Positions 19,717-48,966 of a stretch of DNA of 64,000 nt are shown in pieces (the first letter of the stretch is position 1; each line of letters opens with the position of its first letter). The notes below the pieces were generated by a model, which did not search any database, was not told the origin of the DNA, and worked only from the letters and a program-made list of their open reading frames with translations. The stretch is taken from the NCBI GenBank assembly GCA_050258375.1, contig JBLMYQ010000051.1, forward strand, positions 23,719 to 87,718, given 5' to 3'. A program made the translations under genes and the position numbers. The stretch is from Deltaproteobacteria bacterium. GTDB lineage: Bacteria > Bacillota > Clostridia > Acetivibrionales > UBA4821.

Positions 19717-19758
19717 TTCGTTCCTCCCTATTGAAGGGGGGAAGATAGTTGGGGAGTC
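19717..19758 (-). repeat. Single REP-like hairpin (type B-like) containing the kinase stop codon
   Basis: Minus strand GACTCCCCAACTATCTTCCCCCCTTCAATAGGGAGGAACGAA resembles the ends at 15266 and 48283. Confidence 0.55.
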
Positions 19759-21155
19759 GGAATTGTTAGATAAAAGGAAGTTCCTTCTCCTCTTTTACTT
19801 TCTACCCAAATCTTGCCTCCATGAAGCTCCACTAGGCTTTTAGCAATATTAAGCCCTAATCCGGTTCCTCCATCGTTTTGTCTTGTTCTGTCTCCCCTAT
19901 AAAACTTATCAAACACATGCGCTAAATCTTCTTCCGGAATTCCCTGTCCATTATCTCTCACAGCAAATTTTATAAAATCATCTTCTTGTTTTACCGAAAT
20001 TCTGACTTGAGAACCCTCTCCCGAATACTTGACTGCATTTGTTATCAGATTTGAGAGAATCTGTTTAAGCCTGTCCGAATCTGCCTTAACATAAAATTCG
20101 ACAGGACATTCAGAAACTATTTGAACCTGTTTTTGATGTGCTGTTATTTCCAAGCTTCTTATAATTTCATTTATTACATCAACCGTTTTTACGTCAACAA
20201 TATTTAGTTTGATTGCTCCACCCTGAATCTTTGCAATTTCAAGAATATCTCCGGTAAGCTTTATAAGCCGGTTAATCTCTTCTTTCATAATTGCTAAATA
20301 TTTGGGATAATTTTCGGGCTTAATAAGACCGTCAATCATTCCCTGTACGAAGCCATTAATTGAAGTCAAGGGAGTTCTAAGGTCATGAGAAACATTTGCA
20401 ATAAATTCACGCCTAACATTTTCAGTAATCTCAAGCTGTTTATTCATTGTATTAAAAGCATCAGCCAGCTTTTCAATCTCATCACTGGTTTTCGCTTTGA
20501 TTTCTTCAACCTTTTCTCCTCCTGCAAGCTTCATAGCTGCATCGGTCATTTGTACAATCGGTCTTGAAATTCTTCGTGAAATAAAATAGATTATGCCTGC
20601 ACTGATTATTGCAAGAATCAGTGCACATATCCAGATTATCAGGTTAATCTTTTTTATATCAGCCTCCATTACATTAACAGGAGAAAAAATCAATATAGCC
20701 CCTGAAATCTGATTCCTATTTTTCAGAGGATAACCTGTAAAGACTACATCCATATTAAACTTTGAAGAATATTGAGTTTTACGGAAAACAGTTTTGCCCT
20801 CAAGAATCTGTTCCAGGTCATTAAGCAGAAAAGCTTCATCCAACCCTTCTCCGATGTTGATGCTTTTTTTATCTTTTATTGCATCTACATTTGCATTTAT
20901 AACATAAATACTTGAATCAGTAACATAACCAATAGAATTTATTGATGAATCAAGCTCCTGCTTATTAAGCAATCCGCTAAGATAACTTTCAGCCAACCTC
21001 CCAACTTTTTTTGCAGATTTTAATTGTTCTTGTTCCTTATCGGTAAAGATATAATCCGAATAGCCGATAGAAAGTGCTATAGACGCAGTCAATATGACCG
21101 CAGTAATAATCATCAGATATGTGAACATTAACCGTGAGAAAATATTTTTAAACAT
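19728..21155 (-). CDS. Sensor histidine kinase (HAMP-HisKA-HATPase)
   Basis: ANVSHDLRTPLT, NLITNAVKYS, DNGQGI, GTGLGL. Confidence 0.95.
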   Translation of the reverse strand: MFKNIFSRLMFTYLMIITAVILTASIALSIGYSDYIFTDKEQEQLKSAKKVGRLAESYLSGLLNKQELDSSINSIGYVTDSSIYVINANVDAIKDKKSINIGEGLDEAFLLNDLEQILEGKTVFRKTQYSSKFNMDVVFTGYPLKNRNQISGAILIFSPVNVMEADIKKINLIIWICALILAIISAGIIYFISRRISRPIVQMTDAAMKLAGGEKVEEIKAKTSDEIEKLADAFNTMNKQLEITENVRREFIANVSHDLRTPLTSINGFVQGMIDGLIKPENYPKYLAIMKEEINRLIKLTGDILEIAKIQGGAIKLNIVDVKTVDVINEIIRSLEITAHQKQVQIVSECPVEFYVKADSDRLKQILSNLITNAVKYSGEGSQVRISVKQEDDFIKFAVRDNGQGIPEEDLAHVFDKFYRGDRTRQNDGGTGLGLNIAKSLVELHGGKIWVESKRGEGTSFYLTIPTPQLSSPLQ

Positions 21156-21844
21156 TATTTTACCTCGAATTTGTAACCTACGCCCCAGATTGTAACAAGC
21201 TCCCAACCCGAATCAGGGCTTTCAATTTTTTGTCTTAGGCTTTTTACATGAACGTCAACGGTCCGGGTATCGCCTGTAAAATCATAGCCCCAAACCTTTT
21301 CAAGCAGTTGATCTCTCGAAAAAACAATATTCTTATTATTAACTAAAAAAAACAGCAATTGAAGCTCTTTAGGCTTTAGCTCAACTTTCTTTCCACTTAT
21401 ACATGCCTCATATTTACTTAAATCAACCGACAGATTACCTATGACTATTAGATTATCATTCTTACAAGATGTACCTACATGTTGTCTAAGGCGTGCCTTA
21501 ACCCTGGCAACAACCTCTCTTGGCTCAAATGGTTTTACTATATAGTCATCTGCCCCAAGCTCAAACCCCTGCACCTTATCATCAATCATATCTCGGGCTG
21601 TTATCATTATGACCGGAACACTGCTGGTTTTGCGGATTATTTTGCAGACCTCCCAGCCATTTATTATTGGCATCATAACGTCAAGCATAACCAAATCATA
21701 TTCGTTGCTTTTAATCTCATCAAGCGCACAGCTTCCATCATGACAAAAGGTTAAGGAATAACCTTCATTTGAAAGGTACATATCAAGTATTTCGCAAATA
21801 TTTTTATCATCATCTGCAATAAGGATTTTTTTCTGTTTATCCAT
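21155..21844 (-). CDS. OmpR/PhoB-family response regulator
   Basis: ADDD, LDVMMP, KPF, RTVDVHV, TIWGVGYKF. Confidence 0.95.
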   Translation of the reverse strand: MDKQKKILIADDDKNICEILDMYLSNEGYSLTFCHDGSCALDEIKSNEYDLVMLDVMMPIINGWEVCKIIRKTSSVPVIMITARDMIDDKVQGFELGADDYIVKPFEPREVVARVKARLRQHVGTSCKNDNLIVIGNLSVDLSKYEACISGKKVELKPKELQLLFFLVNNKNIVFSRDQLLEKVWGYDFTGDTRTVDVHVKSLRQKIESPDSGWELVTIWGVGYKFEVK

Positions 21845-21967
21845 TTTCTGACCTCGTTTGGGTAAGTATTAACCTTCTTTCATTTTAAAGCATTCCTCAA
21901 AACAATTCAATTATTAGGTAAAACAAGGCTTGGGTGGCATTTTATGTATAACAAGATAATACTTTTA

Positions 21968-23005
21968 TCATTTCACATTAAAGCAGCCTTGTTCAAAAAG
22001 TATTGTTGCATTTTTATCTTTTGAATACTTTTTAAGCTTGTTAATCAATTCTTGTGCATCTTTCCCCAGCAGTTTTCTCGGCTGGGCTTGTATAATTCTT
22101 ATAGGTAGAATTTCTACCTGTTTAAGCAGACTTTTATCCAGTGATAGATTTAATATTATAGTTTCATCTGTTCCTTTTGGAATTTGCTTATCAAATACAA
22201 AATTACCTACACTGTAGAAAATAAATTTATCTTTATATTTTTCCACACCTTGCAGGACATGCGGATGATGGCCTATAATCATATCTGCCCCATTTTCAAT
22301 AAGTACATGTGCCAGCTTTATCTGATAATCAGAAGGATAATTGTTAAACTCTTTGCCCCAATGAATCGAAACTATAAGGAAATCGCATTTTCTTTTTGCT
22401 TCGGCTACATTTTTTTCTATATTTTCGTTTACTTGAGCCACGTCGGGTTCATTTTCACTAAAGAAATAACCTTCAGAAGGAAAATGTGAATATCCGAGTA
22501 CTCCTAATGTAGTATTTGACACTTTTACAAATTTAGCTTGGCTTGCATTATCTCTGTTTAGACCAGCACCTACTGTTATAATTCCTGCCTTACTCAAATT
22601 ATTCATTGTGTTTTTTAATCCTTCTTGGCCTTGATCCATAGAATGATTGTTCGCAAGGTTTAGTATACTAAAGCCTGCAGCTTTCAGTGCTGCAGCATTT
22701 GAAACATCAGCTTTGAATATAAGCTTCCTATCTTTAAGAACTGGAGTACCTTTTTGGGTTATTGGACATTCCAGATTTCCAATAACAACATCTGATTTTT
22801 TCAAAACATCCTGGATTTCTGAATAAGGATATTTTTCACCTTTACTTTGAATTTGCTTTTTCACTCCTCTGTCGAGAAGAATATCCCCAACGATTGAAAT
22901 TCTAGCACTTTTATTGCTAAAATTTTTTTGAACATACAGTCCTAAAAAGCTTAATATCAATAGGGTACAAAACAAAATTATTATACCTGCGCGGTTCTTA
23001 AACAT
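21968..23005 (-). CDS. CapA/PgsA-family metallophosphatase-fold protein
   Basis: GDILL, GNLE, NLANNH, HWG, GHHPH, YSVGNF. Confidence 0.9.
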   Translation of the reverse strand: MFKNRAGIIILFCTLLILSFLGLYVQKNFSNKSARISIVGDILLDRGVKKQIQSKGEKYPYSEIQDVLKKSDVVIGNLECPITQKGTPVLKDRKLIFKADVSNAAALKAAGFSILNLANNHSMDQGQEGLKNTMNNLSKAGIITVGAGLNRDNASQAKFVKVSNTTLGVLGYSHFPSEGYFFSENEPDVAQVNENIEKNVAEAKRKCDFLIVSIHWGKEFNNYPSDYQIKLAHVLIENGADMIIGHHPHVLQGVEKYKDKFIFYSVGNFVFDKQIPKGTDETIILNLSLDKSLLKQVEILPIRIIQAQPRKLLGKDAQELINKLKKYSKDKNATILFEQGCFNVK

Positions 23006-23043
23006 TAGTATAGGCACCTCACTTCTAAAGTCACCAAGAATTA

Positions 23044-23075
23044 AATTGGGTTTAGCTTTAACACCAAACCCAATT
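23044..23075. terminator. Intergenic hairpin (weak terminator or processing stem)
   Basis: AATTGGGTTT...AAACCCAATT. Confidence 0.45.
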
Positions 23076-23103
23076 CAATAAATTTATAGCACACTAATTC
23101 TTT

Positions 23104-25320
23104 TTAACAGCCCGAAACAAAAGGTTCTGCCGGAACAGGAACGTGGTGTATACCTTTTTGATTCTTAAAGGATTTAATCCATTCCTGCTGGTTTGGCTTC
23201 CCATTTTTAATAATTTTGAGCCATTCTTCATCTGTAAGCCTTTTATTGTTTTTAAATTCATAATAGCTAAAAACTGCACCTCTGGTTAAGTAAAGCTTCC
23301 CTTTTATTGGAACAATGGTATAAATTTCATCTGCATTACCAATTCCCGCTTCGAGGTATTGATCATTATAAGTATGGATATCGGTTATCATTGCAATATT
23401 TTTCTCTGTTTCTGACTCAATCTGATACCATTTTTCAACATCTGTACAGCTTAATGTAAGACCTTCCAAGGTGCCTCCATATATCCTTATAGAATAATAT
23501 TCCTCCTGAGTAAGCTCTTCATTTTTTAATTCCTTAGTAGAGCATGTAATAAGGAAATCCAAAAGATTTGCAAAATTCTCCATTCCACTTTCAACTTCCC
23601 CTGTCATTATGTCCTTATTCTTTAAATTTGTCTTTGTATATTCAGTCAACCACTTTAATCTCTGATACATCTCTATGTTTGGTTCAACATAACCCTTTGG
23701 TGGCGGCGGTTCTTCAAAGCCACCACATTCAGCCGTCATGCTTTGTTTCCCATATAGTACCGTATCATGCCTTAATTCTGACCAGCTTGAAAGAGCAGTA
23801 CTAAGTGACTTATCCTGCCAAGCAGTATTTCTCATGAATGAAGGATATCCCTCTTCAAAGCTAGCAAGTAATGATTTAAGCGTCCAAAGCCATCCATAGT
23901 AAATATTAGACCTCCATGTCTCGTCCGAAGCAGCTGAGAACTTAGCTTCTAAATTATCAAAAATCTCAGAATATTTATTCCAATTATCTTTTTCTTTGTA
24001 TTGATTGTTTAAAATATTTTTTGCTCTTTCAGAACCAAATACAGCCATAACGTCAAGTCCTTTCGGCATAGGACGTTTTTTAATGTCTGTAAGCTCTTGA
24101 AGAACCTCAGAGTCTGCAATATATCTTTGACCCATAAACTTAAATTGTTTACCAACAGGAATATTAATCCTGCCAGTATCAACCTTTGCTTTTATTTTGG
24201 GCTCTGGCAATGCTTTAGCAAGCTTATAAAACTCAGATACCTTTTTTGTATTATCTAATTCTTCTAAATTAGGATTTTTCCCATATACTTCTGCAAGCAT
24301 ATCCTTAAAATGATGTATTGTTATATCATCTGCTGCACCTACGTAAAGTGAAGTTGGATCATAAATTTTTTCCCACAGACTTTCATTTTCCTTTGATGAA
24401 AACACAGCTTGTGTCATAAGTAACCCTTGTATAACCTGCTGTTTATATTCCTGTTTATCATCTATCGGGAAAGAAATCAATCCATACCACATCATCGCCT
24501 TAAAGTATTTTTTCAAGGTTTCATTCTTTGTATAATGCCCTCTTGGTGCAAACTGGCTGTAATCAACCTTGTATGGAAAAATATTTGAATCTGTAAAGCT
24601 TTCATTCCTTGAAATAAGAAGTAATTCTTCTTCAGCAAGCTTGGCTGCGTTTTGGGGCATGTTTTTAGGAAGGCTTTTCCCAAGAAGCTTTTGAGCTACT
24701 GCAAAATACGCCACATTCTTAGCAGCAGCTTCCTTGACAAATGGATTTTTTATATTTTTGTATTGCTTAATAGATTCCAAAAGCATATTGCTTGTTAATT
24801 GTCCTAAAACAGGAGTTAGTTTTTGTTCTTCCACCTTTCTTAAAGAATAATCAAAGAACAAATGATAAACCTGCAGCACTGAATCAGTTGAAATAAAGCT
24901 TGGGATTTTTAGATATTCATTTCTTTCATAAATATAAAATAGCTGCTCTTCATTGGTTGGTAATACAACAAATCCGTTTTTCACCAAAAGAGTTTTCTGT
25001 TCTTTTGTAAATGTACCAAATTGTTCAATATTTACTACATTTGATAAATCAGCCTTTATCTTATATTCAGGAACTTTTTTTTCAAATGCTGGTGCTTTCC
25101 ACTCAACATTAATTAATCCATCTCTTTTCCCAATATCATTCCTTGTAACAATTGTTTCTGTTTTCTGTGGATTACTCGTAGTCTCCTTTACTCCTTCCGA
25201 TTGTTTATTTACCTGCTGAATTTCCACCCTTACCGGTTCCTTTTTCGAATTTATACATCCTGCCGCAATCCCACATATAAGAAGTACAGAAGCAATAACC
25301 CATATCTTCTTTTTCAACAT
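23104..25320 (-). CDS. DUF3160-family lipoprotein
   Basis: Lipobox IAAGC; DYSQFAPRGHYT, SWSELRHDTVLYGKQS, GYVEP, RGAVFSYYEF. Confidence 0.85.
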   Translation of the reverse strand: MLKKKIWVIASVLLICGIAAGCINSKKEPVRVEIQQVNKQSEGVKETTSNPQKTETIVTRNDIGKRDGLINVEWKAPAFEKKVPEYKIKADLSNVVNIEQFGTFTKEQKTLLVKNGFVVLPTNEEQLFYIYERNEYLKIPSFISTDSVLQVYHLFFDYSLRKVEEQKLTPVLGQLTSNMLLESIKQYKNIKNPFVKEAAAKNVAYFAVAQKLLGKSLPKNMPQNAAKLAEEELLLISRNESFTDSNIFPYKVDYSQFAPRGHYTKNETLKKYFKAMMWYGLISFPIDDKQEYKQQVIQGLLMTQAVFSSKENESLWEKIYDPTSLYVGAADDITIHHFKDMLAEVYGKNPNLEELDNTKKVSEFYKLAKALPEPKIKAKVDTGRINIPVGKQFKFMGQRYIADSEVLQELTDIKKRPMPKGLDVMAVFGSERAKNILNNQYKEKDNWNKYSEIFDNLEAKFSAASDETWRSNIYYGWLWTLKSLLASFEEGYPSFMRNTAWQDKSLSTALSSWSELRHDTVLYGKQSMTAECGGFEEPPPPKGYVEPNIEMYQRLKWLTEYTKTNLKNKDIMTGEVESGMENFANLLDFLITCSTKELKNEELTQEEYYSIRIYGGTLEGLTLSCTDVEKWYQIESETEKNIAMITDIHTYNDQYLEAGIGNADEIYTIVPIKGKLYLTRGAVFSYYEFKNNKRLTDEEWLKIIKNGKPNQQEWIKSFKNQKGIHHVPVPAEPFVSGC

Positions 25321-25338
25321 TTCTAATCCCTCCAGTTA

Positions 25339-26355
25339 TTAATTAAATATACCAAGTAAATTACTATCCCGGGCGAATTTTTTTGAAACCATTCTATTGG
25401 TGCTGTTAATCATAACAGTCCATTTCCAAATATTATTTTCTTTTATACGCGCAACAATTTCTCTCGGGTTTCCTGTAATTAATGTTCCTCTTTTTATATC
25501 TGAAATATCTTCAAAACCTTTGCTTGATGCAATTCCTTCAAATCCGAATCCTTTCCATCTATATAAGCTGATAAGCTTTTGCCCTTGCCTGTTAACTTCA
25601 ATCGAAATCAGCTCATCCATTCCATCGCAATTAATATCTTGAAATATATAGTCTTCAAATGGCATTGAAAGCCTTGACCCCAACCATTTAGGCGATATGC
25701 CTCCATTCTCCCAGTTATATACAAATGGTCTTTTTGCATATATCTGATGCAAAGGTGTTTTTTTGTATGCTCCAAAGGATATATCCTTCTTTTTGTCTCC
25801 ATCAACATCCGCAGCTTGAACCTTCCAAACATCAAACCCTTTAAATTGGTATGAATATTTTACTTTTAATTTGTTTGCTGAAGCATTATCAAAAGAAAGC
25901 ATTAATATTTTTCTGCCATATTGTTCACCTTCTTTTCCGGTAACAAGGATTATATAATCTTCCCCAATTTTGTCCATATCAGCTGTAAAGCTGCTTACGA
26001 TTCTATTATTATCTTCTATTGCATATCTTGCTGCCTCTTTTCCATTTCTATCAAAAACCTTGATTCCCTTTTCATTTATCAATACTATGTATTTTCCCCC
26101 TGCATTGAAAAACCAAATATTTTGTATATTTTCCTTTGATATATTAAGCACCTTAAGACTAAAAAGCGCCCGCGGGTTTTGCCTATATACCAGAAAATTA
26201 AATCCGAGCAGCTCACCTGTAAAATAAACTGCTGGTTTGCTTTCCATGGATATTTTTAAAATATTATTTATTGAGATTGAATAAGTAGCCATCCAAATAA
26301 GTATTAAAAAAACGCACAATAAAAAAGCAAAAAATAATTTCTTTTTAGATATCAA
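25339..26355 (-). CDS. Membrane-anchored protein with FG-GAP/VCBS-like DxDGD repeats
   Basis: ADVDGDKKKDI, DINCDGMDEL, PKWLGSRLS, WKGFGF; TTG start after GGAGG. Confidence 0.7.
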   Translation of the reverse strand: MISKKKLFFAFLLCVFLILIWMATYSISINNILKISMESKPAVYFTGELLGFNFLVYRQNPRALFSLKVLNISKENIQNIWFFNAGGKYIVLINEKGIKVFDRNGKEAARYAIEDNNRIVSSFTADMDKIGEDYIILVTGKEGEQYGRKILMLSFDNASANKLKVKYSYQFKGFDVWKVQAADVDGDKKKDISFGAYKKTPLHQIYAKRPFVYNWENGGISPKWLGSRLSMPFEDYIFQDINCDGMDELISIEVNRQGQKLISLYRWKGFGFEGIASSKGFEDISDIKRGTLITGNPREIVARIKENNIWKWTVMINSTNRMVSKKFARDSNLLGIFN

Positions 26356-26616
26356 AAATGATGCCTCCACTAATATACTTTTTTTGATAAATATAATATT
26401 CTATTTATTTAAGAAAACTCCTTTAACAATATATTATTTGTTCAATAATTGACATAAAACAAAGCCTTATTTTTTATATTTTTTATTTAAAAAGTGTAGA
26501 AAATTTGTTATAATCGTGATAAAATTAAATTTATTGAAATGGTTTATATTCAAATGGATGCCTGCAAATCTGCGCGGACAAGGATGCTTTTTCATTTTTT
26601 GAAGGAGGAATTGGGG

Positions 26617-26850
26617 ATGGGTCAGACAGTAAAAGAAGCAATTGATTGGCTTATTGTGAAGTACAACTGCTGCAGCATTAGTGATTTGTTCAAGAAAGCT
26701 GCCAAATGGGAAATCGGAGCTTTTTTTAAGGAATCTACAGGGAAAAGCCTGGTGTTAACAATGGGCTTCAAGCAAGGTGAAGAAAATGGGTATCTAATAA
26801 ATGAATTCTTTTTCCCTTCCTATTATTCGCCAAATATTCCATCTGTGTGA
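26617..26850 (+). CDS. Small hypothetical protein (77 aa)
   Basis: Strong RBS AAGGAGG, upstream TGTTATAAT, own terminator. Confidence 0.55.
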   Translation: MGQTVKEAIDWLIVKYNCCSISDLFKKAAKWEIGAFFKESTGKSLVLTMGFKQGEENGYLINEFFFPSYYSPNIPSV

Positions 26851-26865
26851 TATCCAATTTTTTAT

Positions 26866-26895
26866 AAAGGAGCGAATAATCGCTCCTTTTTTTTT
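26866..26895 (+). terminator. Intrinsic terminator
   Basis: AAAGGAGCGA-ataa-TCGCTCCTTTTTTTT. Confidence 0.85.
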
Positions 26896-26991
26896 AGCAA
26901 TGAATTTGGGCTCTACATATAAAGAGATTCCTTTTTCATTTATTTTAAGATATAATTCAAATATAAATTCATCAATTAAAGGAGTATTTTC

Positions 26992-27225
26992 ATGAAGGAT
27001 CCACGAAACAGAGCAGATGTTCCTCCAGGAACAAGAGTAATGGTTGTTCAGAAGCAGCATCAGCCAACAGGGCAGCTAACAGAAGGAATTGTTGCAGACC
27101 TTCTTACAAATTCCGCATTTCACCCAAGAGGAATCAAGGTCAGACTGACAAGCGGAATCGTGGGGCGTGTTCAGAAAATTATTGAAGAACACAAAATGAT
27201 AATTGAACCTATCCATAAAAGTTAA
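26992..27225 (+). CDS. YwbE/DUF2196-family small protein
   Basis: VQKQHQPTGQLTEGIV..LLTNSAFHPRGIKVRL..G.VGRVQ. Confidence 0.9.
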   Translation: MKDPRNRADVPPGTRVMVVQKQHQPTGQLTEGIVADLLTNSAFHPRGIKVRLTSGIVGRVQKIIEEHKMIIEPIHKS

Positions 27226-28454
27226 AATTCAAAATCAATCCCTTGCAGCCTTTTTTTAATTTCATCCATAACCTGTTTTTCTTCCTGAATGCTATTTGCT
27301 GCATATGTCATTGAAAGTCTTACAAAATGTCCTGCATCATCCCAAGGAACCGTGGATATCAATTTCTCCATTATCAGAAATTGTGAGAACTCTTCTGCAT
27401 TTTTAAAGCTTCTTCCACCCTTTATACCTTTGGGAGTCTCAACATACAAAAAGAACGCCCCTTTGGGCTTTTCCACAGTAAAACCCTTTCCCTTCAGAAC
27501 CTCAATCATAAGATCATATCTTCTTGAGTACTTTTCACTTGTTTTTCGGGTAATTTCGGGATGCTTAAAAGCATGCATTGCAGCTTTTAGGATTGGTATA
27601 AACTGCCCGGCATCGCAGCTACCCTTAATCTCGGCCAAGCCTTTCATTGCCAGCTCATTTCCTGCAATGACTGCTATTCTCCAGCCTGCCATATTGAAGG
27701 CTTTTGAAAGAGAAAATATTTCTATTCCAACATCCTTTGCGCCATCAACCGAAAGAAATGCCAGCGGTTTTTCATTATCAAATACAAGACTTGAGTATGC
27801 TGCATCATGAATAACTACAATGTCATTCTGCTTAGCAAAGCTTACAACCTTTTCAAAAAATTCTCTGGTTGCACATGCACCCGTAGGATTATTTGGATAA
27901 TTTATATAAAGCAGCTTTGCCTTCTTGCGAACATCCTGAGGTATTGAATCAAGGTCTGGAAAAAAATTATTTTCTTTTCTCAAAGGAAGATTATAAACCT
28001 TTCCCCCATACCATTCACTTGAAATCCCCAGGGTAGGATAACATGGAATCGTCATAAGCGTAATGTCACCAGGATTTATAAATACAAGAGGAATCATTGC
28101 AAGAACAATTTTTGAGCCTATCCCGTGAAATACTTCTGTAGATGAATTTAGACCCTTTATTCCATAAACCTCTTCCAGATATTTTACAGCCGAATCTTTA
28201 AAATCCTGCGGTCCATGTCCTGAATAACTGCGGTTTTCGTGTTTAGCAGCTTCTTTGCCAAGAATCTCAACACAACCCATATCCGCCATTTCATCAGGTT
28301 CGCCAACGCCCAGATCTATAAGCTTCATTTCCGGATGAAGCTTTTGCGCTGCCGCTTTTGCCTGCCTGATTCTTTCAAATTTATATATAGCCTCTCCTTT
28401 TCCAAATTCAGAGCCGCCTATTCTATCTGCAAAAAGGTTTTGTATATAACTCAT
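27222..28454 (-). CDS. dapL: LL-diaminopimelate aminotransferase-like class I PLP enzyme (divergent)
   Basis: SYIQNLFADRIGG N-terminus, DLGVGEPD, NYPNNPTG, DAAY, SLSKAFNMAGWR, STVPWDDAG. Confidence 0.7.
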   Translation of the reverse strand: MSYIQNLFADRIGGSEFGKGEAIYKFERIRQAKAAAQKLHPEMKLIDLGVGEPDEMADMGCVEILGKEAAKHENRSYSGHGPQDFKDSAVKYLEEVYGIKGLNSSTEVFHGIGSKIVLAMIPLVFINPGDITLMTIPCYPTLGISSEWYGGKVYNLPLRKENNFFPDLDSIPQDVRKKAKLLYINYPNNPTGACATREFFEKVVSFAKQNDIVVIHDAAYSSLVFDNEKPLAFLSVDGAKDVGIEIFSLSKAFNMAGWRIAVIAGNELAMKGLAEIKGSCDAGQFIPILKAAMHAFKHPEITRKTSEKYSRRYDLMIEVLKGKGFTVEKPKGAFFLYVETPKGIKGGRSFKNAEEFSQFLIMEKLISTVPWDDAGHFVRLSMTYAANSIQEEKQVMDEIKKRLQGIDFEF

Positions 28455-28694
28455 TAGCCTGCCTCCCATAATACCTTTGTGTTTAATATTCTACCGTGAT
28501 TCAGTATATTTTACAACTGTGTTTAACCTCTATTATTTTTATGAAAATTATGGTATAATTGTTTCAATTATTGTCTTCTTATAAATATAAATTCCTCCAC
28601 TTTGGAATTTTGTTTCTCCTGATAATTGTTAGGATAACCTTTAGCAAAAAGACGTTAATACCTTACAGACGTAAATTAGAAAGGAAGTGCTTAA

Positions 28695-29905: not shown

Positions 29906-29912
29906 AATCTTC

Positions 29913-29953
29913 TATTTCTCCTCTATTTCAAGAGAGGGAGCTAGGGGGTAATT
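29913..29953 (-). repeat. Single REP-like hairpin, type A, containing the dapF stop
   Basis: Minus strand AATTACCCCC-TAG-CTCCCTCTCTTGAAATAGAGGAGAAATA. Confidence 0.75.
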
Positions 29954-30789
29954 TCTCCTTCGAAAACAAACTCTGCCGCTCCGGTCATATAAACCCTGTT
30001 GTTTTCTTCCTTCCACTCTATCAACAAATCTCCACCTCTGAGCCTGACAACCGATTTCCTTTCAGCCAAGCCATTCAGTACTGCTGCAACCAATACTGCA
30101 CAAGCTCCCGTTCCACACGCGAGAGTTTCTCCTGCTCCTCTTTCCCATACTCTCATTTCTAAAAGCTCTCTGTTTATTACCTTAACAAACTCAGCATTAG
30201 TCCTCTTCGGAAAAATCTCGTTATTTTCTATCTCCAGCCCTATTCTTTCTATTACAATTCCATCAACATTATCAACAAATGTAACCGCATGAGGATTTCC
30301 CATTGAAACACAAGTAATTTGAACTAAATCCTTCTGTATCTCCAAAATCTCTTTTACAATTCCATTCTTGCTGCTTATTACAGGAATCCCGTCAGCCTCA
30401 AGGATAGGCTCTCCCATATCAACCTTAACCGATTCTACTAATCTATTTTGAATATTTAGCTCAATAGCCTTAATTCCTGCAAGTGTCTCAACATCAATAG
30501 CAGTTTTGTCAGTTAGACCTTTTTCATAAACATATTTTCCGACGCATCTTACAGCATTTCCGCACATCTCTGCTTCAGAACCGTCAGAATTGAACATCCT
30601 CATTCTAAAATCAGCTTTTTCTGAAGGCATAATCAATACCAACCCATCAGAGCCTACTCCGAAGTGCCTGTCGCTGATTTTTCTTGCCATCTGATTCAAA
30701 TCCCCTTCGATTTTCTGTTTAAAACAATCTATGTATACATAATCATTGCCAATTCCCTGCATTTTTGTAAAGATTATTGTATTATCCAT
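29941..30789 (-). CDS. dapF: Diaminopimelate epimerase
   Basis: [33 protein letters not shown]. Confidence 0.97.
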
Positions 30790-38835: not shown

Positions 38836-38842
38836 ATGGCTT

Positions 38843-39448: not shown

Positions 39449-39456
39449 AATACCTC

Positions 39457-39500
39457 AAACCCGCATATGCAGTTAATACTGCCTGCGGGTTTTTTCTTTT
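39457..39500 (+). terminator. Intrinsic terminator
   Basis: AAACCCGCA...TGCGGGTTTTTT. Confidence 0.8.
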
Positions 39501-39567
39501 GCACTCTATCGGAAAATAAGATTTTGTTTTATAATCTATATCAGAATCTTTTTATGGAGTAATAGAA

Positions 39568-40161: not shown

Positions 40162-40166
40162 TAGCT

Positions 40167-42239
40167 TTAGCTTAATTTAAATTCTGACACTGCCTTCAAA
40201 AGATTGCTTGCTTCCTTTGCGAGGGAATCATTTGAAGAAGCGATTTCGTTCGTTCCTCCAGCAATCTGGCTTGCCGATTCATTCATATTTTTAACAGCTA
40301 GTACTACTTCTGCACTTGCTGCAGTTTGTTCTTCGATGGCAGCCGCTATAGTATTTGCCAAATCATTTACATTATATGCAGCTTTGCTAACCTCTTTAAT
40401 CATTTTTTCCTGACTCTCTATAACCATTTCAACATTTTTAACTTGTCTGGCCGTTTCTTCAACTGCATACTTAATTTGTCCCAATGCGCTTTCTGTTTCC
40501 TTTGCTAATTGAACTCCTATTTCAACCTGCTGTGCTCCGTTCTTGGCAGTATCAACTGCCGCTCCTACCTCCTCCTGAATTCCCCTTATCAGCTTTGTAA
40601 TCTCTTTGGTTGCCTCGCCGCTCTTTTCTGCCAAACTCCTTACCGCACCCGCAACAACCGCAAAGCCTTTTCCATGCTCGCCAGCTCTTGCAGCTTCAAT
40701 TGCAGCATTCAGTGCCAATAAATTTGTCTGCTCCGCTATATCGTCAATAACATCCACTATTTCTCCAATATCAATGGCAGATTTCCCCAATCCCCTTATA
40801 GCAATTACCAAATCACCGACAGCTTTATTTATTTCATCCATCCCATTTTTAGTCTTTTCGACAGAAATTTTACCTGTTTCGGCTGCCGTTATGCTGTTTT
40901 GGGATTGAGCTGTAACTTCTCCGGCGCTTTTTGTAATTTCATCAGTTAATTTATCTATCTCACTTATTAATACAATAACTGAGCTAACATTGGCGGTTAC
41001 TTCCTGTATATTCATTGATATATCCTGTATGCTTGCATCCAACTGCTCCATAGAACTAAATGTATGTTCTGATGCCAAAGACTGGTTCTCGCTGCTGGAG
41101 GCTATCTGCTGGGTAATAGCACTTGTCTGTTCTGCCGCAGATGAAACCATTGAGGATGAATCCAATATTGCTGTTAACATATGCCTTAGACGTTCAACCA
41201 TTTTGTTTAATGACTGCGCCATTTGCGCCATCTCGTCTCTGCCTTTTACTTCAGCTGCTACAGTAAGGTTTCCGCCAGAAACCTCTTCAGTCGTTTTAAC
41301 CATTTTGTTTATAGGCTTTATGATTTGACTAATATTAAATATGATTACAAAGCAAATAGCTATTATTATAATTAGAGAAAGCAAAGAGGAAACAACTGCA
41401 TAAGAATCAATATCTCCATAAACCTCATTCCGGGGCGCTATTAAGACCATGCTCCAACCAGTAGAACCTATAGGTCCAAAAGATAAAACCTTATTTATGT
41501 TATTATGTTTAATAGATCTATAAAATCCTCTTTCTCCGGCTATAGCTTTTTTTGCAAATTCAGTTATTGTTTTTTCCTGGTTCTGTAAAAAATTCACTTT
41601 TAAAATACTCTTTGCATCAGGATGTGCAATAACTGTAGCCTCTTTATTCATTATAAAAGCATATCCTGTTTTTGCGAATTTTTCTTTGTTAATCTGCTTT
41701 GAAAACTCTTCCATGCTTATGGTTTGCGCAAAAGCTCCTATAATTACTCCATTTTTTTTAACCGGTGAAACAGCAATAATAGCTGGGTTACCTGTAGCCT
41801 TAGAAATTACCGGATCTGAAATAACCGTTTGTCCCTTCATAGCTCTTTTAAAATATTCTTCTTGTGCAACACTTCCTGTTATACCAGTGTTAGTTTGAAA
41901 TCTTCCGTTTAAATCAATAACAGTAAACGCCACTGTCTCTTTACAAATGTCTTTTATCTCAGAAATATAATTTTTTAGCATTGAGCTATTACCAGTTAAT
42001 ATAGCATTCCTTACCTCATCAGTTTTAGCATTAATTTCGACTTGACTTTCCCATTGATCTAATCTACCCTGACAATACCTTTCCATTTTATCAACTTTAG
42101 CATAACATATTTCTTGTACATCATTATTTACCTGCTTAGTTATCATTAAGGTTGTAAAAGCTGCAATTATAGCCATTCCAATTAAAAATACGTTTAACAC
42201 AGGAACAAGTACTTTCGTTTTTATGCTCTTAAAATTCAT
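40167..42239 (-). CDS. Methyl-accepting chemotaxis protein (dCache-HAMP-MCP)
   Basis: Two TM helices, [43 protein letters not shown]. Confidence 0.95.
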
Positions 42240-42650
42240 GATTAACCCCTTTCAAAGATAATCTTATCTTCTAATTTTTCGTTGACTTGGTAATTGAAAA
42301 TTATAACTAAAGAAAATTACAACTGCTTGAAACAGAGGGTAAAATATTAGATATTTTTAAAATACCGATGGGAATTTATAGAAATATCGTCTTGCATGTT
42401 TTGCTTGTCCAAATTATACTTTATTATACTTTTGTTTACATTTAATTTCAACCTTCTTAACAAACAGCTATATGGGCTTTTTTGCCATGTTTTGTCAATT
42501 TTTGTTGTTTTAATACAATATGTATACCAGTAGTTCTTCGCTAAAATAGTTTTCCGGAGGGTATGATTATGATATAATTCATTGTGAAATCTATAGTTGC
42601 CTTAGTAATAAATATTATACAAATCGTTTTATTCAATAGAGGAGAAAAAC

Positions 42651-44150
42651 ATGGAATACATTAGTACCAGAGGATACAAAAATCATATAACTGCCTCATC
42701 TGCAATTGTTTCAGGAATTGCTCCTGATGGTGGTTTATTCGTTCCCAGATGCATTCCGGTATTATCACAAAATGAAATAATAGGATTATACAAAAAGAAC
42801 TTTCAGGATATTGCTTTTTTTATAATTAAGAAGTTTATACCTGATATTGAAAATGAAGATTTAAAAAAATGCATATCACAAGCATATAATTCCAAAAGCT
42901 TTGATAATCCTTTGATTTGTCCTTTAAGACCCCTTACTGATTCCATTTTAATGCTTGAGTTATGGCATGGACCTACCTGCGCTTTTAAAGATATAGCACT
43001 TCAGCTTCTTCCGAGATTACTTACTGTATCTGCTAAAAACCTTGGAGACGAAAGCACTTTTGTAATACTTGCTGCAACCTCAGGCGATACAGGCAAAGCT
43101 GCACTTGAAGGCTTTAAGGATGTACCTAAAACAAAAGTTGTGGTGTTTTTCCCTCAGGACGGTGTAAGTGATATCCAAAAAAGCCAGATGGTTACTCAAG
43201 AGGGTAACAATGTACATGTCATTGGCGTTAATGGGAATTTCGACCATGCGCAGAGCGGTGTTAAAGAAATTTTTGCAGATAAAGAGCTTTTAAATACCCT
43301 AGCTGCAAAAAACATGAAGCTTTCATCGGCAAATTCAATTAATTGGGGAAGACTTCTGCCGCAAATAGTATATTATTTTTCTTCGTATATGGCTCTATTA
43401 AAATCATCGCATATAAAATTTGGTGATAAAATAAATGTATGCATACCAACCGGAAATTTTGGCAATATAATGGCTGGTTATTATGCCAAAAAAATGGGCT
43501 TGCCAATAAACAAGCTGATAATCGCAACAAATCAAAACGATGTGCTTGCCAGATTTGTTAAAACAGGAGTATACGATGCAAGCAAGGATTTAAAAACAAC
43601 CATCTCGCCATCAATGGATATACTGGTTTCAAGTAATCTTGAAAGATTATTATTTGAAGCTTCAGGACATGATTCAGAAAAAGTTTTAGAGCTTATGAAC
43701 AGCCTTAAACAAAACCGCAGCTATAAGGTTGATAAAGAAATATTTTCTTTTATAAGAGAAGATTTTTATGCAGATTACGCAACAGAAAAGAGCACTTTAA
43801 AATCCATAAAGAATGTGTTCAGGAATTATAAATATGTTGTTGACCCACATACAGCAGTAGGGCTGCATGTTTACAACAAATATGTAAAAAAGACCGAAGA
43901 CCATACGCTTACTATTATTGCAAGCACTGCTAGTCCTTACAAATTTAACCGCAGTGTAATTAATGCCCTTAATAAAAAAGCTCAATCTTTTGAGAACAAG
44001 GATGAATTTGAACTGCTTAATATTCTTTCAGCCACAACTAAAACCTTGGTTCCAAAGCCTTTAAAACATTTAGCTTCAAAACCGGTTTTGCATAATACAG
44101 TTTGCGAAAAGGATGAAATGAAAAAGGTATTAGAAAAAATATTAGAATAA
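42651..44150 (+). CDS. thrC: Threonine synthase
   Basis: YISTRG, ELWHGPTCAFKD, ATSGDTG, SANSINWGR, PTGNFGN. Confidence 0.97.
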   Translation: MEYISTRGYKNHITASSAIVSGIAPDGGLFVPRCIPVLSQNEIIGLYKKNFQDIAFFIIKKFIPDIENEDLKKCISQAYNSKSFDNPLICPLRPLTDSILMLELWHGPTCAFKDIALQLLPRLLTVSAKNLGDESTFVILAATSGDTGKAALEGFKDVPKTKVVVFFPQDGVSDIQKSQMVTQEGNNVHVIGVNGNFDHAQSGVKEIFADKELLNTLAAKNMKLSSANSINWGRLLPQIVYYFSSYMALLKSSHIKFGDKINVCIPTGNFGNIMAGYYAKKMGLPINKLIIATNQNDVLARFVKTGVYDASKDLKTTISPSMDILVSSNLERLLFEASGHDSEKVLELMNSLKQNRSYKVDKEIFSFIREDFYADYATEKSTLKSIKNVFRNYKYVVDPHTAVGLHVYNKYVKKTEDHTLTIIASTASPYKFNRSVINALNKKAQSFENKDEFELLNILSATTKTLVPKPLKHLASKPVLHNTVCEKDEMKKVLEKILE

Positions 44151-44192
44151 AAATACCGGCAGCTGCAATTGCAGCTGCCGGTATTTTTATTC
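44145..44192. terminator. 48-bp perfect palindrome, bidirectional terminator of thrC and trpA
   Basis: GAATAAAAATACCGGCAGCTGCAA|TTGCAGCTGCCGGTATTTTTATTC. Confidence 0.9.
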
Positions 44193-44981
44193 ATCCAATG
44201 CCTTCCTCAATTCCTCTACTAATCTTCTTACACCTTCAATTGCTTTATTTATCGCGTCTACCTCTTCGATTTTTTTCACAATCGCACTTCCAACAATAAC
44301 ACCTTCACTGAATTCCTTTATGCTTCTCACCTGCTCCGGCGTAGAAATACCAAATCCGACAGCCCTGGGTATATCTGTATAGCTATGTATTTCTTTAACA
44401 AATTCAGCAAGATTTTTATGAAATTCTTCTCTTACACCTGTTACACCCAAAGAAGAAACGCAGTAAACAAATCCTTTTGCGTCTTTTGCTATTCTTTTCA
44501 TTCTCTCTTTTGAGGTTGGTGCAATTAAGGTTATAACATTTATACCAAATTCCTGTGCTGTAGAATTTATCTCTTCCTTCTCTTCAAAAGGCAGGTCCGG
44601 AACTATTACTCCATCAACTCCTGTTTCCTCACATTTTTTGAAGAAATCATCCAATCCATATTTAAATATGCAATTAAAATATATTAGTAAAATCAGTGGT
44701 ATCTCTGTTTTTTCCCTTGCTCTACTTACAACAGCAAAAACATCCTCAATTTTCATACCGTTTTTTAATGCGCGTTCAGATGCAGCCTGAATAACCGGTC
44801 CTTCAGCAAGCGGGTCTGAAAAAGGAACACCTAATTCAATTATATCCGCTCCTGCATTCTCCATAGCTTCAATAAGCTCAATAGTCGCTTCCAGACTAGG
44901 GTCTCCAGCAGTTACAAAGGTTATTAGTGCTTTCTTCCCTTTCTCATTTAATGTTTTAAATTTATCATCAATTCTATTCAT
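44187..44981 (-). CDS. trpA: Tryptophan synthase alpha chain
   Basis: ELGVPFSDPLAEGPVIQ, VPDLP, GVTG, GFGIS. Confidence 0.98.
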   Translation of the reverse strand: MNRIDDKFKTLNEKGKKALITFVTAGDPSLEATIELIEAMENAGADIIELGVPFSDPLAEGPVIQAASERALKNGMKIEDVFAVVSRAREKTEIPLILLIYFNCIFKYGLDDFFKKCEETGVDGVIVPDLPFEEKEEINSTAQEFGINVITLIAPTSKERMKRIAKDAKGFVYCVSSLGVTGVREEFHKNLAEFVKEIHSYTDIPRAVGFGISTPEQVRSIKEFSEGVIVGSAIVKKIEEVDAINKAIEGVRRLVEELRKALDE

Positions 44982-44998
44982 ATAATCACTCCTCCTAT

Positions 44999-45133
44999 AA
45001 CTTACCCCTAGCCCCTCTCTTTTTAAAAGAGGGGAACTAGCTTTTATTTTATTATAATTTGAAAAATTATCTCTCCCTGAATATCTAGTTTTTCCCTCTG
45101 TTTTATAAGAGAGGGAAGCTAGAAGGGTGAGTT
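44999..45133. mobile_element. REPIN-like doublet, type A, between trpB and trpA
   Basis: Left end AACTTACCCCTAGCCCCTCTCTTTTTAAAAGAGGGGAACTAG; right end reverse-complemented AACTCACCCTTCTAGCTTCCCTCTCTTATAAAACAGAGGGAAAAACTAG. Confidence 0.75.
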
Positions 45134-46306
45134 CATATACTTAGCAATAGACGTTACATCCTTATCTCCTCTTCCTGAAATATTTATTACAACAATCCGG
45201 CTTTTTTGCATATCAGGAATAATCTTTAAAGCATATGCAACTGCATGCGCGCTCTCAATTGCAGGTATTATTCCTTCAATTCTTGTAAGATATTTAAAGG
45301 CTTCAACCGCTTGGTCATCAGTTATAGGATAGTATTCTGCCCTATTTTTTTTAAAAAGATTAGCATGCTCAGGTCCTATACCGGGATAATCCAGACCGGC
45401 AGAGATTGAATGAACAGGCATTATCTGCCCTTCTTCATTTTGTAGGAAATATGATTTCATTCCATGGAAAACCCCGATACTTCCTTTAGTTAGTGTCGCA
45501 GCATGTTTTTCTGTTTCAATCCCTAATCCAGCCGCTTCAACACCAATCAGTCTGACATTTTTATCTTCAATAAACGGATAGAACAAACCCATAGCATTAC
45601 TTCCACCGCCAACGCAAGCTATCAGAACATCGGGAAGCCGTCCTTCAACCTGCATCATTTCTTTTTTTACTTCATCTCCAATTATTCTCTGAAAGTCGCG
45701 TACGATTGTCGGGTAAGGATGCGGTCCCATTACTGAGCCAAGAACATAAAACGTATCCTCGACGCTCCCTGCCCAGCTTCTCATGGCTTCACTTGTTGCA
45801 TCTTTTAAGGTGCCGGTTCCTGCTTTGACCGGAATAACCTCCGCGCCTAGAAGCCTCATCCTGAAAACATTCAACGCTTGCCTTTCAATATCTTCAATTC
45901 CCATAAAAACTTTGCATTCCATGTCAAAAAGTGCTGCAGCCGTAGCTGTTGCGACTCCATGCTGACCAGCGCCCGTTTCAGCAATAACCCTTTTCTTTCC
46001 CATTCTTTTAGCTAATAAAGCCTGGCCAAGAACATTATTTATTTTATGTGAGCCTGTATGGTTCAAATCCTCTCTTTTAAGATAAACCTTAGCTCCTCCC
46101 AGCTCTTTTGTCATTCTTTCGGCAAAGTACAAGGGCGATGGTCTTCCGGCATAATTTTTAAGATAATACTGATATTCCTTAATAAATTCCGGGTCATTAA
46201 TATACCTTACATGAGCTTCTTCAAGCTCTGCCAATGCATTCATCAATGTTTCAGGCACATACTGCCCTCCAAAATCCCCAAATCTTCCCCTCTTTACATT
46301 TTCCAT
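45119..46306 (-). CDS. trpB: Tryptophan synthase beta chain
   Basis: [38 protein letters not shown]. Confidence 0.98.
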
Positions 46307-46399
46307 ATTTATCTCCTCCCTTTAATTAATAACAAATGCCAGTTAACTCTTCCATCTATCCAATGACTATTGCCCATAAATAATTGGACGAAGTCGTTT

Positions 46400-46441
46400 T
46401 ATCTCCCCTCTATTTTAAGAGAGGGGTTAGGGGTGAGTTAA
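46400..46441 (-). repeat. REP-like hairpin, type A, containing the trpC stop (degenerate partner near 46343-46361)
   Basis: Minus strand TTAACTCACCCC-TAA-CCCCTCTCTTAAAATAGAGGGGAGATA. Confidence 0.8.
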
Positions 46442-47209
46442 TTCCTTCAATTTCTCCTTGGGTGAATCAGCCTTCATGAGCACCTCTCCAACCAGCACAG
46501 CGTCAACTCCCAAACCCTTGAGATATTCCATATCACTTCTTGTTTTTATCCCGCTTTCACTAACAACTATTCGGCTTTTAGGTATCATTCCAATCAATCT
46601 TTCTGTTGTATCAAGCTTTACTTCAAATGTTTTTAAGTTCCTGTTATTAATACCAATTATTTCAGCATTTGTTTCCAATGCCCGTTTTAATTCCTCTTCA
46701 TCATGAACTTCAATAATACAAGCCATTCCAAGGATTTTTGAAACTATCTGGAATGTCTTTAATTCATCATCTGAAAGTATTGAAACAATCAAGAGTATTG
46801 CATCTGCACCAGCCATTCTTGACTGATAAATCTGCCTTAAATCGATTATAAAATCTTTTCTCAATATAGGAAGTGGAATCCTCTGCCTGACCTTTATCAA
46901 ATTATTTATGCTTCCTTTGAAGTAATGCTCTTCTGTAAGAACAGAAATCATATCAGCTCCACCTTCAAAATATTCCTTGCCCATCAAGGGAGGATCAACA
47001 GATTCCATAATAATTCCCTTTGAAGGTGATGCAGGCTTTATTTCAGCAATTACTGCCAGACCATCACTTTTTTTGAGTACCCTTGTAACATCTAAGGCAG
47101 GACTAACCTTAGACCTTAATAACTTTTGCTTCATGGTTTCACTTGAAATGCTGCCAAATTCTTCTTGTATGGTTTTTCTCTTTCTTCCGACAATTTCGTC
47201 CAGTATCAT
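46427..47209 (-). CDS. trpC: Indole-3-glycerol phosphate synthase
   Basis: IAEIKPASPSKG, SVLTE, LRKDFI, GINNRNL, SESG. Confidence 0.97.
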   Translation of the reverse strand: MILDEIVGRKRKTIQEEFGSISSETMKQKLLRSKVSPALDVTRVLKKSDGLAVIAEIKPASPSKGIIMESVDPPLMGKEYFEGGADMISVLTEEHYFKGSINNLIKVRQRIPLPILRKDFIIDLRQIYQSRMAGADAILLIVSILSDDELKTFQIVSKILGMACIIEVHDEEELKRALETNAEIIGINNRNLKTFEVKLDTTERLIGMIPKSRIVVSESGIKTRSDMEYLKGLGVDAVLVGEVLMKADSPKEKLKELTHP

Positions 47210-48228
47210 AATTCCACTCTCCTTGTGTACTCTACAAACTCTTCCAGCTTTCTCGCCGCCTTACCTGAATCAATAATATCATTGGCAAGGATTACCCCTT
47301 CATAAATATCTTTAGCTTTATTTCCAATATACAATGCTGCTGCGCTGTTTAATATAATCGCATCCCTTGCTGCCCCTTTTTTCCGTCCGTTCAATATCTC
47401 CTTTATAATCAAAGCATTTTCAGCCTTTTCCCCGCCTCGCAGCTCCTCAACGCTTGACTTTTTAATACCAAAATCATCCGGCGTCAGCGTGTAATTTATA
47501 ATTTCCCCTTCATTTATTTGGGTAATAAAGGTAGAACCGCTGACAGTAATTTCGTCCAATCCGTCACTTCCGTGAACAATCATAGCTCTTTGGGTTCCTA
47601 ATCTCAAAAGAACCTCTGCCATAGTATCTGCAAGTTCCTTTTTAAATACTCCGATAAGCTGACCCGAAGCATTAGCAGGATTGGTTAAAGGACCTAAAAT
47701 ATTGAATACAGTTCTAATTCCAAGCTCTTTTCTTGCTCCGCCGACATTTTTCATAGATTTATGGAAATTAGGTGCGAACATAAAGCCTATTCCAATTTCC
47801 TCTATGCACTTTTCAACTTCAGCAGGCTGTAAATCAATAATTATTCCAAGCTCTTCAAGCACGTCAGCACTTCCGCATTTACTCGAAACTGACCTGTTTC
47901 CATGTTTTGCAACCGGAATCCCTGCTGCCGAAACAACAAACGCTGCCCCTGTAGAAATATTGATGGTATGTGCGCAATCTCCACCTGTTCCACATGTATC
48001 AACTGAGAAATCAACCTTTGGGTAAATGCATTCAGCTTTTTTTCTCATGGTTTTTACAAACCCTGTTATTTCTTCAACCGTTTCACCCTTCATTCTTAAT
48101 GCTGTAAGAAAGCTTCCGATTTGTGCCTGCGCAGCACTTCCATCCATTATTATATCCATAGCCTGCTCTGCTTCATTTTCTGTAAGATTTACTCTCTCAA
48201 CCACTTTTGCAATAAATGCTTTCAACAT
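47206..48228 (-). CDS. trpD: Anthranilate phosphoribosyltransferase
   Basis: DTCGTGGD, KHGNRSVSSKCGSADVLE, GLDE. Confidence 0.97.
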   Translation of the reverse strand: MLKAFIAKVVERVNLTENEAEQAMDIIMDGSAAQAQIGSFLTALRMKGETVEEITGFVKTMRKKAECIYPKVDFSVDTCGTGGDCAHTINISTGAAFVVSAAGIPVAKHGNRSVSSKCGSADVLEELGIIIDLQPAEVEKCIEEIGIGFMFAPNFHKSMKNVGGARKELGIRTVFNILGPLTNPANASGQLIGVFKKELADTMAEVLLRLGTQRAMIVHGSDGLDEITVSGSTFITQINEGEIINYTLTPDDFGIKKSSVEELRGGEKAENALIIKEILNGRKKGAARDAIILNSAAALYIGNKAKDIYEGVILANDIIDSGKAARKLEEFVEYTRRVEL

Positions 48229-48282
48229 ATCCCTCACTCCCTTTAAATTTAAAATTTATTCAACTTGCTAATGTTAAATTCA

Positions 48283-48407
48283 GACCTCCCTATCCCTCCT
48301 AAAAGGAGGCGAACAGCAACTTTTGCAAAAACGTATTTATCGTCTTTCATAAAGATTACTTTCAGAATCCTACTAATCGCTCCCTTTTCAGGGAGGATAG
48401 GAGGGTC
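48283..48407. mobile_element. REPIN-like doublet, type B, between trpG and trpD
   Basis: Left end GACCTCCCTATCCCTCCTAAAAGGAGGCGAA; right end reverse-complemented GACCCTCCTATCCTCCCTGAAAAGGGAGCGAT. Confidence 0.75.
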
Positions 48408-48966
48408 AGCTTAAAAAATTTCTCAGAATCTCCATACCGTTTTCAGTCAAAATCGACTCAGGATGAAACTGTATTCCAAACAAAGGATAATCCTTATGCT
48501 TAATTCCCATTATGCATTCATCATCAGTTTCAGCTGTAATTATCAGCTCTTTCGGAAGAGTTTTTCTGTCAATTACCAGAGAATGGTACCTTCCAGCCTT
48601 TATAGTTTTTGGCAAATTTTTGAACAGTTCACACTCACCGAGTCTTACCTCTGAAGCCTTTCCATGTACAAGCTCCTCTGCGCGGATGATTTTACCTCCA
48701 AAAACCTCTCCGATTGCCTGGTGTCCTAAGCAAACTCCTAAAATAGGAATCATTTTATAAAAATCCTTTATTAGCTGTCCAGTTATCCCTGCATCCTTTG
48801 GATGCCCTGGTCCGGGCGAAATAACTATATGCGATGGATTGAGCTTTCTTATTTCCTCTATGGTAATTTTGTCGTTTCTGTACACCTGAATATCCTGATT
48901 AATCTCTCCAATATACTGATAAAGATTATAGGTAAACGAATCATAATTATCGATTATTAAAATCAT
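48406..48966 (-). CDS. trpG: Anthranilate synthase component II
   Basis: IDNYDSFTYN, SPGPG, GVCLGHQ, QFHPES. Confidence 0.96.
   Translation of the reverse strand: MILIIDNYDSFTYNLYQYIGEINQDIQVYRNDKITIEEIRKLNPSHIVISPGPGHPKDAGITGQLIKDFYKMIPILGVCLGHQAIGEVFGGKIIRAEELVHGKASEVRLGECELFKNLPKTIKAGRYHSLVIDRKTLPKELIITAETDDECIMGIKHKDYPLFGIQFHPESILTENGMEILRNFLS

Follow-up and report, generated by a model that had tools for sequence, protein, structure and literature searches.

Predicted DNA-triplex repeats adjoining DUF559 genes lie in register with stop codons and translation starts in a bacterial genome assembly

Introduction

In the stretch of 64,000 nucleotides studied here (the window; contig JBLMYQ010000051.1 of assembly GCA_050258375.1, positions 23,719 to 87,718, deposited as Deltaproteobacteria bacterium and placed by GTDB among the Clostridia), five genes, encoding a sensor histidine kinase, DapF, TrpB, TrpC and TrpG, carry short repeats that overlap their stop codons and C-termini. 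An earlier note on this DNA had regarded these repeats as REP-like (repetitive extragenic palindromic) elements that were either inserted at translation-termination sites or selected as post-transcriptional control elements. What kind of repeat is this, and how does it come to fit the ends of genes so closely? As set out below, the repeats resemble the BoxC/PIT triplex motifs, they adjoin genes of the DUF559 family of putative nucleases, and their tails are in register with stops as well as with translation starts. The exact fit is most likely a by-product of the way in which copies land and their flanks are trimmed, and not a control switch.

The source genome (G000; 2.40 Mb, 35% G+C, 82 contigs; 2288 genes called with our own codon model) was compared with that of a sister species (G001; covered to about nine tenths by 2.39 Mb in overlapping stretches) and with two relatives' loci, L041 and L042. 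Median identity between G000 and G001 is 79%, with 1448 reciprocal best hits. Names of genes beyond the window were read from protein ends and are not database calls.

Repeats at Five Gene Ends

All five stop codons were verified together with the overlap of the repeats, each on the minus strand and each with the C-rich tail of the repeat directed toward the open reading frame (ORF); Pfam supports the HAMP-HisKA-HATPase kinase, DapF, TrpG, TrpC and TrpB. More than one repeat family is involved. The kinase gene (19728..21155) ends in a divergent repeat of type E (19715..19759) that encodes roughly the final 10 residues of the protein, which closes with ...LTIPTPQLSSPLQ, and its TAG (19728-19730). 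Family A is found at three genes. At dapF (29941..30789), which lies at a convergent junction, a copy with a degenerate tail (29912..29950) provides ITP and the TAG (...FEGEITP-TAG, 29941-29943); at trpC a copy at 46399..46440, joined at a native out-of-frame TTAA, provides THP and the TAA (...KELTHP-TAA, 46427-46429); and at trpB a copy of subtype A2 (45089..45133) provides NSPF and the TAG (...KYMNSPF-TAG, 45119-45121). At trpG a copy of family B1 (48370..48409) overlaps the TGA (...RNFLS-TGA, 48406-48408), the letters GA being common to stop and element.

The copies at trpB and trpG each form the left half of an inverted pair. The trpB partner (44998..45038, plus strand) abuts with its tail the native Shine-Dalgarno sequence of trpA (44986..44995, minus strand), and the B1-like trpG partner (48282..48319, plus strand) is followed by a spacer resembling the whole 40-nt trpG-trpD spacer of an empty relative. 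The observation that the C-rich tail always faces the ORF therefore stands for the five copies and does not extend to these two partners, which point at the start side of the next gene.

The proline-containing ends of four of the proteins had been ascribed to the repeats, and comparison with orthologs bears this out: since repeat-free orthologs have other C-termini, the tails are made by the repeat. Repeat-free kinases end in ...FTIPV or LPNRL; four of the seven closest homologs stop just after the last strand, and the other three carry different Pro-rich, repeat-like tails (judged on protein only). DapF of G001, which is without a copy, ends in GEYDLV-TAA. The nearest relative at the trp operon is L042, whose TrpG, TrpD, TrpC and TrpB are 84-90% identical and whose trp junctions hold no intact copy. 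Its TrpB ends in KYMGVNLDE (KYMGEEL is the other repeat-free ending), and its trpB and trpA overlap by 8 nt; in the window the pair sits directly after KYM, and the former last codons survive beyond the pair as the Shine-Dalgarno sequence of trpA. Repeat-free TrpC proteins end in ...ELRG...; the same out-of-frame TTAA junction occurs in L041, and only a possible fragment in L042. Overshoot of this kind into the coding sequence is over-represented in the window in comparison with the genome, where the commonest state leaves the protein unaltered.

Two further repeats in the window are recorded here for completeness, a 65-nt direct repeat just 3' of the kinase stop (19517-19581 and 19645-19709, 92% identical) and a perfect loop-less palindrome of 56 nt (1206-1261), which may be biological or an assembly artefact.

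Repeat Families and Triplex Architecture

A profile search of G000 at E < 0.05 yielded 73 matches to family A, 55 to B1, 39 to B2, 8 to E and 4 to D. Read on the G-rich strand, the unit consists of a pyrimidine stem, a loop, a purine stem, a short loop of 3 nt and a mirror copy of the purine stem. At least seven triads are predicted for 36 of the 73 family-A copies of G000 and 22 of 42 in G001, as against 9-12% with shuffled tails, and B1 and B2 copies reach 5-6 triads vs. 2-3 after shuffling. In the window, 10 triads are predicted at trpB and 8 at trpC, and the dapF copy fails the mirror/triad test. The lengths of the C-runs in tail and stem co-vary (4/4 in 15 copies, 5/5 in 16, discordant in three; 31/34 concordant, P = 4.5e-7). 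Copies are also arranged as inverted pairs, 17 of family A across the two genomes in addition to B2-B1 pairs, and the motif is patchy, being carried by eight of 149 genomes of the order, which fits a horizontally moving element.

Judged by sequence, the repeats belong to the BoxC/PIT kind of triplex motif, and an intrastrand DNA triplex is their predicted fold. The stem-loop-mirror architecture, the two subtypes arranged as inverted pairs, the patchy distribution and the variable flanks are all shared with the G/C-rich class II intrastrand triplex motifs BoxC, PIT and TMECO as described by Holder et al. (2015; PMC4666352). The stems are shorter (7-9 nt), and the strict TMECO pattern with a 9-nt stem has no match in G000. 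Rfam has no model for the repeat, its sole match being a T-box, and a general repeat search of the window did not recover the family.

The label REP-like thus named the wrong family. The family consensus carries neither a GTAG nor a CGTC tag at the hairpin foot, and a REP-associated tyrosine transposase (RAYT) was rejected as partner because the only Y1 transposase gene of G000 carries another palindrome and the repeats flank DUF559 instead. The RAYT-type gene itself (C48:54684-55085, locus L006) contains GTAG-type palindromes in frame. A separate family of short tandem 7-mer repeats in G000 (26 exact 14-mer matches, e.g., C51:32432 and C24:39900) often begins at or after stop codons and presumably resembles repeats that occur beside four-helix-bundle genes.

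Register of the Tails at Stops and Starts

Counts for family A refer to the 64 of 73 matches in G000 that have an intact tail. The tail shares the AA of a TAA stop in 26 cases, overshoots by 13-58 nt into the gene and ends it at an internal stop in ten (as at dapF, trpB and trpC), and lies 1-16 nt past a stop in five. On the start side, six tails come to within 0-2 nt of a start codon on the opposite strand, such that the G-rich strand occupies the Shine-Dalgarno position, and another six lie 6-17 nt from a start and abut the native Shine-Dalgarno sequence, as at trpA; the remainder are farther off (eight), inside genes (two) or at a contig edge (one). Altogether, 53 tails are at most 17 nt from the boundary they face, and 44 face a stop vs. 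17 a start. The 34 tails of G001 comprise 12 exact ones, one overshoot and seven at a start. A pyrimidine precedes the tail in 61/64 cases in G000 and 32/34 in G001, and unpaired copies lie within 1 nt on the tail side in 34 of 50 cases vs. four of 50 on the hairpin side. For the exact class, C-terminal length is the same in 17 of 21 orthologs, from which it follows that the native stop was hit. Family-A-like copies were also noted within called genes, at C41:14086 (in frame in a 480-aa MiaB-like ORF) and at C63:41466.

Chance expectations for the exact share (26/64) are 0.4% for any position, 1.8% for an AA target and 5.8% for a TAA target (P <= 6e-16), and within the 17-nt zone after a stop 26 of 31 tails are exact, with 47% expected (P = 3e-5). 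A plain AA or TAA target without any boundary bias is ruled out by the length-weighted comparison and in the 17-nt zone; it is not rejected if junctions weigh equally. Where the orthologous empty spacer measures at least 40 nt, eight of 14 stop-facing tails are exact vs. 1.2 expected (anchored tails).

Pairs follow the same pattern. In nine of the 17 pairs both tails are no more than 17 nt from a gene boundary, and in seven both are at or inside one; two pairs lie between convergent TAA stops, and in one of them the native spacer of 24 nt is gone. At a hisH-hisF-like junction both stop and Shine-Dalgarno sequence have been replaced. Bare tails that have lost the hairpin persist at stops and at starts: at C64:21770 and C82:16363 of G000 the tail alone stands in ribosome-binding position, with a full copy at both sites in G001, and that at C82:16363 also gives the upstream gene its TGA. 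Stops in at least two frames are present in 32 of 43 strong copies; stops in all three frames were dropped as a general property, as only seven of the 43 have them.

Enrichment at stop codons is thus strong across G000, and to this extent the proposal of targeting to termination sites is upheld. It falls short in two respects, since tails also register at starts and Shine-Dalgarno sequences and since identical copies elsewhere are unregistered. In five other genomes with the identical motif none of 30 copies is exact and four are within 17 nt, and the copies keep common outer flanks. Register as a general feature across phyla was accordingly rejected, a wider sample giving 5/78 exact (ORF-length calls only, with loci for 30 of 46 matches).

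DUF559 Cassettes

All seven DUF559 matches in G000 adjoin B1 or B2 copies, and of 80 family-A loci from other phyla, 13 have a DUF559-like match, two of them overlapping. In G001, an intact DUF559 gene of 112 aa lies between two family-A ends (L346, 4403-4908); a TAA stop is shared by the left end, and 15 nt separate the right end from the next start. G000 has only an empty spacer of 17 nt at the orthologous junction. PF04480 matches were obtained at E 1.9e-29 and 1.1e-23, and the protein aligns with PDB 3HRL (E 2.6e-11) with retention of the motif DF...E.DG..H. DUF559 has been grouped with Vsr and a homing endonuclease (PMC3424549). Within the window, a unit at 15266..15447 (plus strand), distant from gene ends, consists of B2 and B1 copies around what is left of a DUF559 gene, its first and last codons only, and represents an internally deleted cassette; similar remnants at C68, C34, C41, C38, C44 and C2 have distinct outer inverted ends in common. 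Literature linking DUF559 to BoxC/PIT-type repeats was not found in a search to which subscription journals and supplements were not open.

These outer ends bear on an explanation in which the nuclease has no part: replication slippage induced by the triplex would delete DNA beside the tail, and DUF559 would be a passenger, e.g., on a miniature inverted-repeat transposable element (MITE) that also contains B pairs. About 20 near-identical B2-B1 pairs of 105 bp indeed sit within a MITE of about 200 bp with terminal inverted repeats and target duplications of 8-11 bp (C64:8066, C82:11352, C11:42570, C36:1812 and some 16 others in G000), the DUF559-B cassettes have outer inverted ends of their own, and slippage is discussed in PMC4666352. 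We nevertheless regard this explanation as very improbable, because the family-A cassette of G001 has neither outer flanks nor a duplication and because DUF559 is associated with two distinct repeat subfamilies and with many phyla. Target duplications and terminal inverted repeats were likewise not seen for family A or at the five sites in the window.

Occupied and Empty Junctions and the trp Operon

Of 975 orthologous junctions, 19 are occupied in both species, 50 in G000 alone and 16 in G001 alone; strictly shared sites number 13 vs. 2.1 expected. Repeated independent targeting of one junction by different families was considered and discarded, the three cases among the 19 shared junctions being at about chance level.

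In E. coli, REP hairpins behind stop codons can reportedly stall ribosomes and affect mRNA stability. Applied to the present repeats, the host would have selected a hairpin behind the stop that stalls ribosomes, protects mRNA or steps down expression along an operon. The preponderance of stop-facing over start-facing tails, long retention as indicated by the strictly shared sites, and mRNA hairpins that fold at trpB (z = -4.1) and trpG (z = -2.7) speak for such a role, as does the T-rich run that follows the hairpin in 11 of 68 family-A copies, although this is a small share. We hold it to be unlikely in view of the junctions filled in one species only, of hairpins at dapF, kinase and trpC that are no better than shuffles (z -0.7 to -1.3) and of the nearest relatives, which are without intact copies at the trp junctions. 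In addition, what is conserved is a mirror of the purine-motif type; according to PMC4666352, RNA cannot adopt a triplex of this type, and neither promoter nor terminator activity was seen for PIT elements.

For the trp operon in particular (trpE-G-D-C-B-A, 44187..50435, minus strand), the suggestion that the copies were selected for post-transcriptional control finds no support: L042 lacks intact copies at these junctions, and the operon has a T-box leader (50742-50991, Rfam) as well as a terminator at its end. No intrinsic terminator was called at any of the three trp copies. As the stems of the repeats begin within about 13 nt of the stop, side effects of copies on translation are possible, and exaptation is visible where tails serve as ribosome-binding sites and hairpins precede a T-rich run. 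The operon lacks trpF between trpC and trpB, as in G001, L041 and L042 and unlike four of five more distant relatives.

Candidate Mechanism

The anatomy of the repeats, the bracketing of DUF559, the empty and filled sites, the register at stops and starts, some loss of native spacer and the replacement of C-termini are observed. On balance, and with somewhat better than an even chance, we attribute them to mobile DUF559 cassettes and their gene-less derivatives, whose tails would join host DNA at very short matches, the host spacer then being lost until selection halts the process. The BoxC/PIT-type units would be the two inverted ends of a likely mobile nuclease cassette. DUF559, a member of the Vsr-like PD-(D/E)XK group, may cut at or near the tail, and the free end, which starts with AAC, may be rejoined at a host pyrimidine followed by AA, for which a TAA stop would be the best match; on the other strand, the place of rejoining would be the Shine-Dalgarno region, to which the tail's G-rich strand is similar and for which it can stand in. 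Host spacer would subsequently be lost outward, up to the coding boundary, where purifying selection would stop it; intergenic deletions at published triplex-motif loci are described in PMC4666352. Joins a few codons inside a gene may survive because within 45 nt most copies offer a stop in two or in all three frames, and the Pro-rich ends of TrpB, TrpC, DapF and the kinase would then be tolerated scars of such overshoot joins. Some copies may later have been retained as ribosome-binding sites or terminator-like hairpins.

Several results weigh against this explanation. When junctions are weighted equally, the TAA null (27.5%) nearly accounts for the share at stops (P = 0.016; G001, P = 0.14), and a first test on 42 junctions with a crude regular expression gave no overall excess (15 observed, 17.5 expected); this pattern missed some registered copies and gave eight vs. 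3.9 for spacers of at least 40 nt. A comparison in its favour, by which B1 copies lie within 17 nt of a boundary in 14 of 21 cases if flank-less and in none of 30 if flank-bearing, is partly circular, and a stop also lies no more than 20 nt from five of 18 outer ends of young MITEs. The case for loss of host DNA is weak, the residual spacer being shorter than the empty one in 20 of 25 cases with a background of 50-65%. Cutting, mobility and triplex formation are all steps that we infer from sequence.

Other adverse points favour an alternative in which the cassette integrates in one step at stops and initiation regions, using a TAA or Shine-Dalgarno match and perhaps helped by transcription-translation, with no trimming afterwards. 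In G001 the intact cassette already lies flush against both a TAA stop and the Shine-Dalgarno sequence that follows. At trpG the native 40-nt spacer remains recognisable past the pair, and native spacer survives on the far side at no fewer than two other sites as well, as expected from a single untrimmed insertion at the stop. Registered copies match the consensus better than those farther off (median 35 vs. 27 bits, P = 0.04) and are thus least diverged, the opposite of what a slow ageing process would produce; L041 has separate type-E-like copies directly behind the TAA stops of trpG and trpD; and the empty spacers of occupied junctions follow the per-junction and not the per-base distribution (below 40 nt at 16 of 42, background 45% per junction vs. 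6.8% per base). One-step targeting accounts less well for pairs that are registered at both ends with the host spacer lost, for the lack of register of the identical motif in the five other genomes and for the offset that differs between the two species at three shared junctions, and we consider it a rather doubtful candidate.

Relation to Known Systems and Significance

The kind of repeat itself is already known, and so are REP ends that supply stop codons (PMC3733652). New here are the exact, two-sided and genus-restricted register, the pair of filled and empty cassette sites, and the Pro tails as overshoot joins. According to PMC4666352, copies of TMECO in E. coli lie between genes without exception, at 10-310 nt from ORFs; they favour no particular distance, and no mobile gene is linked to them. 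The copies described here, in contrast, overlap stops, replace Shine-Dalgarno sequences and bracket DUF559. The REP/REPIN and RAYT system, as described by Di Nocera et al. (2013; PMC3733652), likewise has short hairpins, inverted dimers and a small flanked nuclease gene, and the ends of GTAG REPs frequently give flanking ORFs their TAG stop; it differs from the present one by its GTAG/CGTC tag, by an HUH enzyme in the place of DUF559 and by the lack of register at starts. ERIC, Correia/NEMIS and RPE, bacterial MITEs found in fusion with ORFs, contribute residues to host proteins and may change the stability of mRNA (Delihas, 2008; PMC2229807). Family A, in contrast, shows neither a TA duplication nor a long terminal stem, and it frequently eliminates host spacer. 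Among the DUF559/Vsr-like PD-(D/E)XK nucleases (PF04480), those found here are flanked by triplex repeats and do not lie within an intron.

It is possible, and we put this forward tentatively, that DUF559 genes with triplex ends form an unrecognised class of selfish elements with a translation-neutral tail that reads as a stop in one direction and as a Shine-Dalgarno sequence in the other. BoxC/PIT repeats have been without a function or a mobilising enzyme since the 1990s, and an intact cassette, the corresponding empty site and dozens of junctions exact to the nucleotide now offer a concrete donor, a candidate enzyme and a predicted junction rule. The repeat rewrites C-termini and ribosome-binding sites of core genes, among them trpB, trpC, hisH-hisF, radA and a purD-like gene. 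If DUF559 genes with triplex ends are indeed selfish elements of this class, they could invade the borders of essential genes that are translationally coupled, write over the signals for stop and ribosome binding there and in this way become hard to lose.

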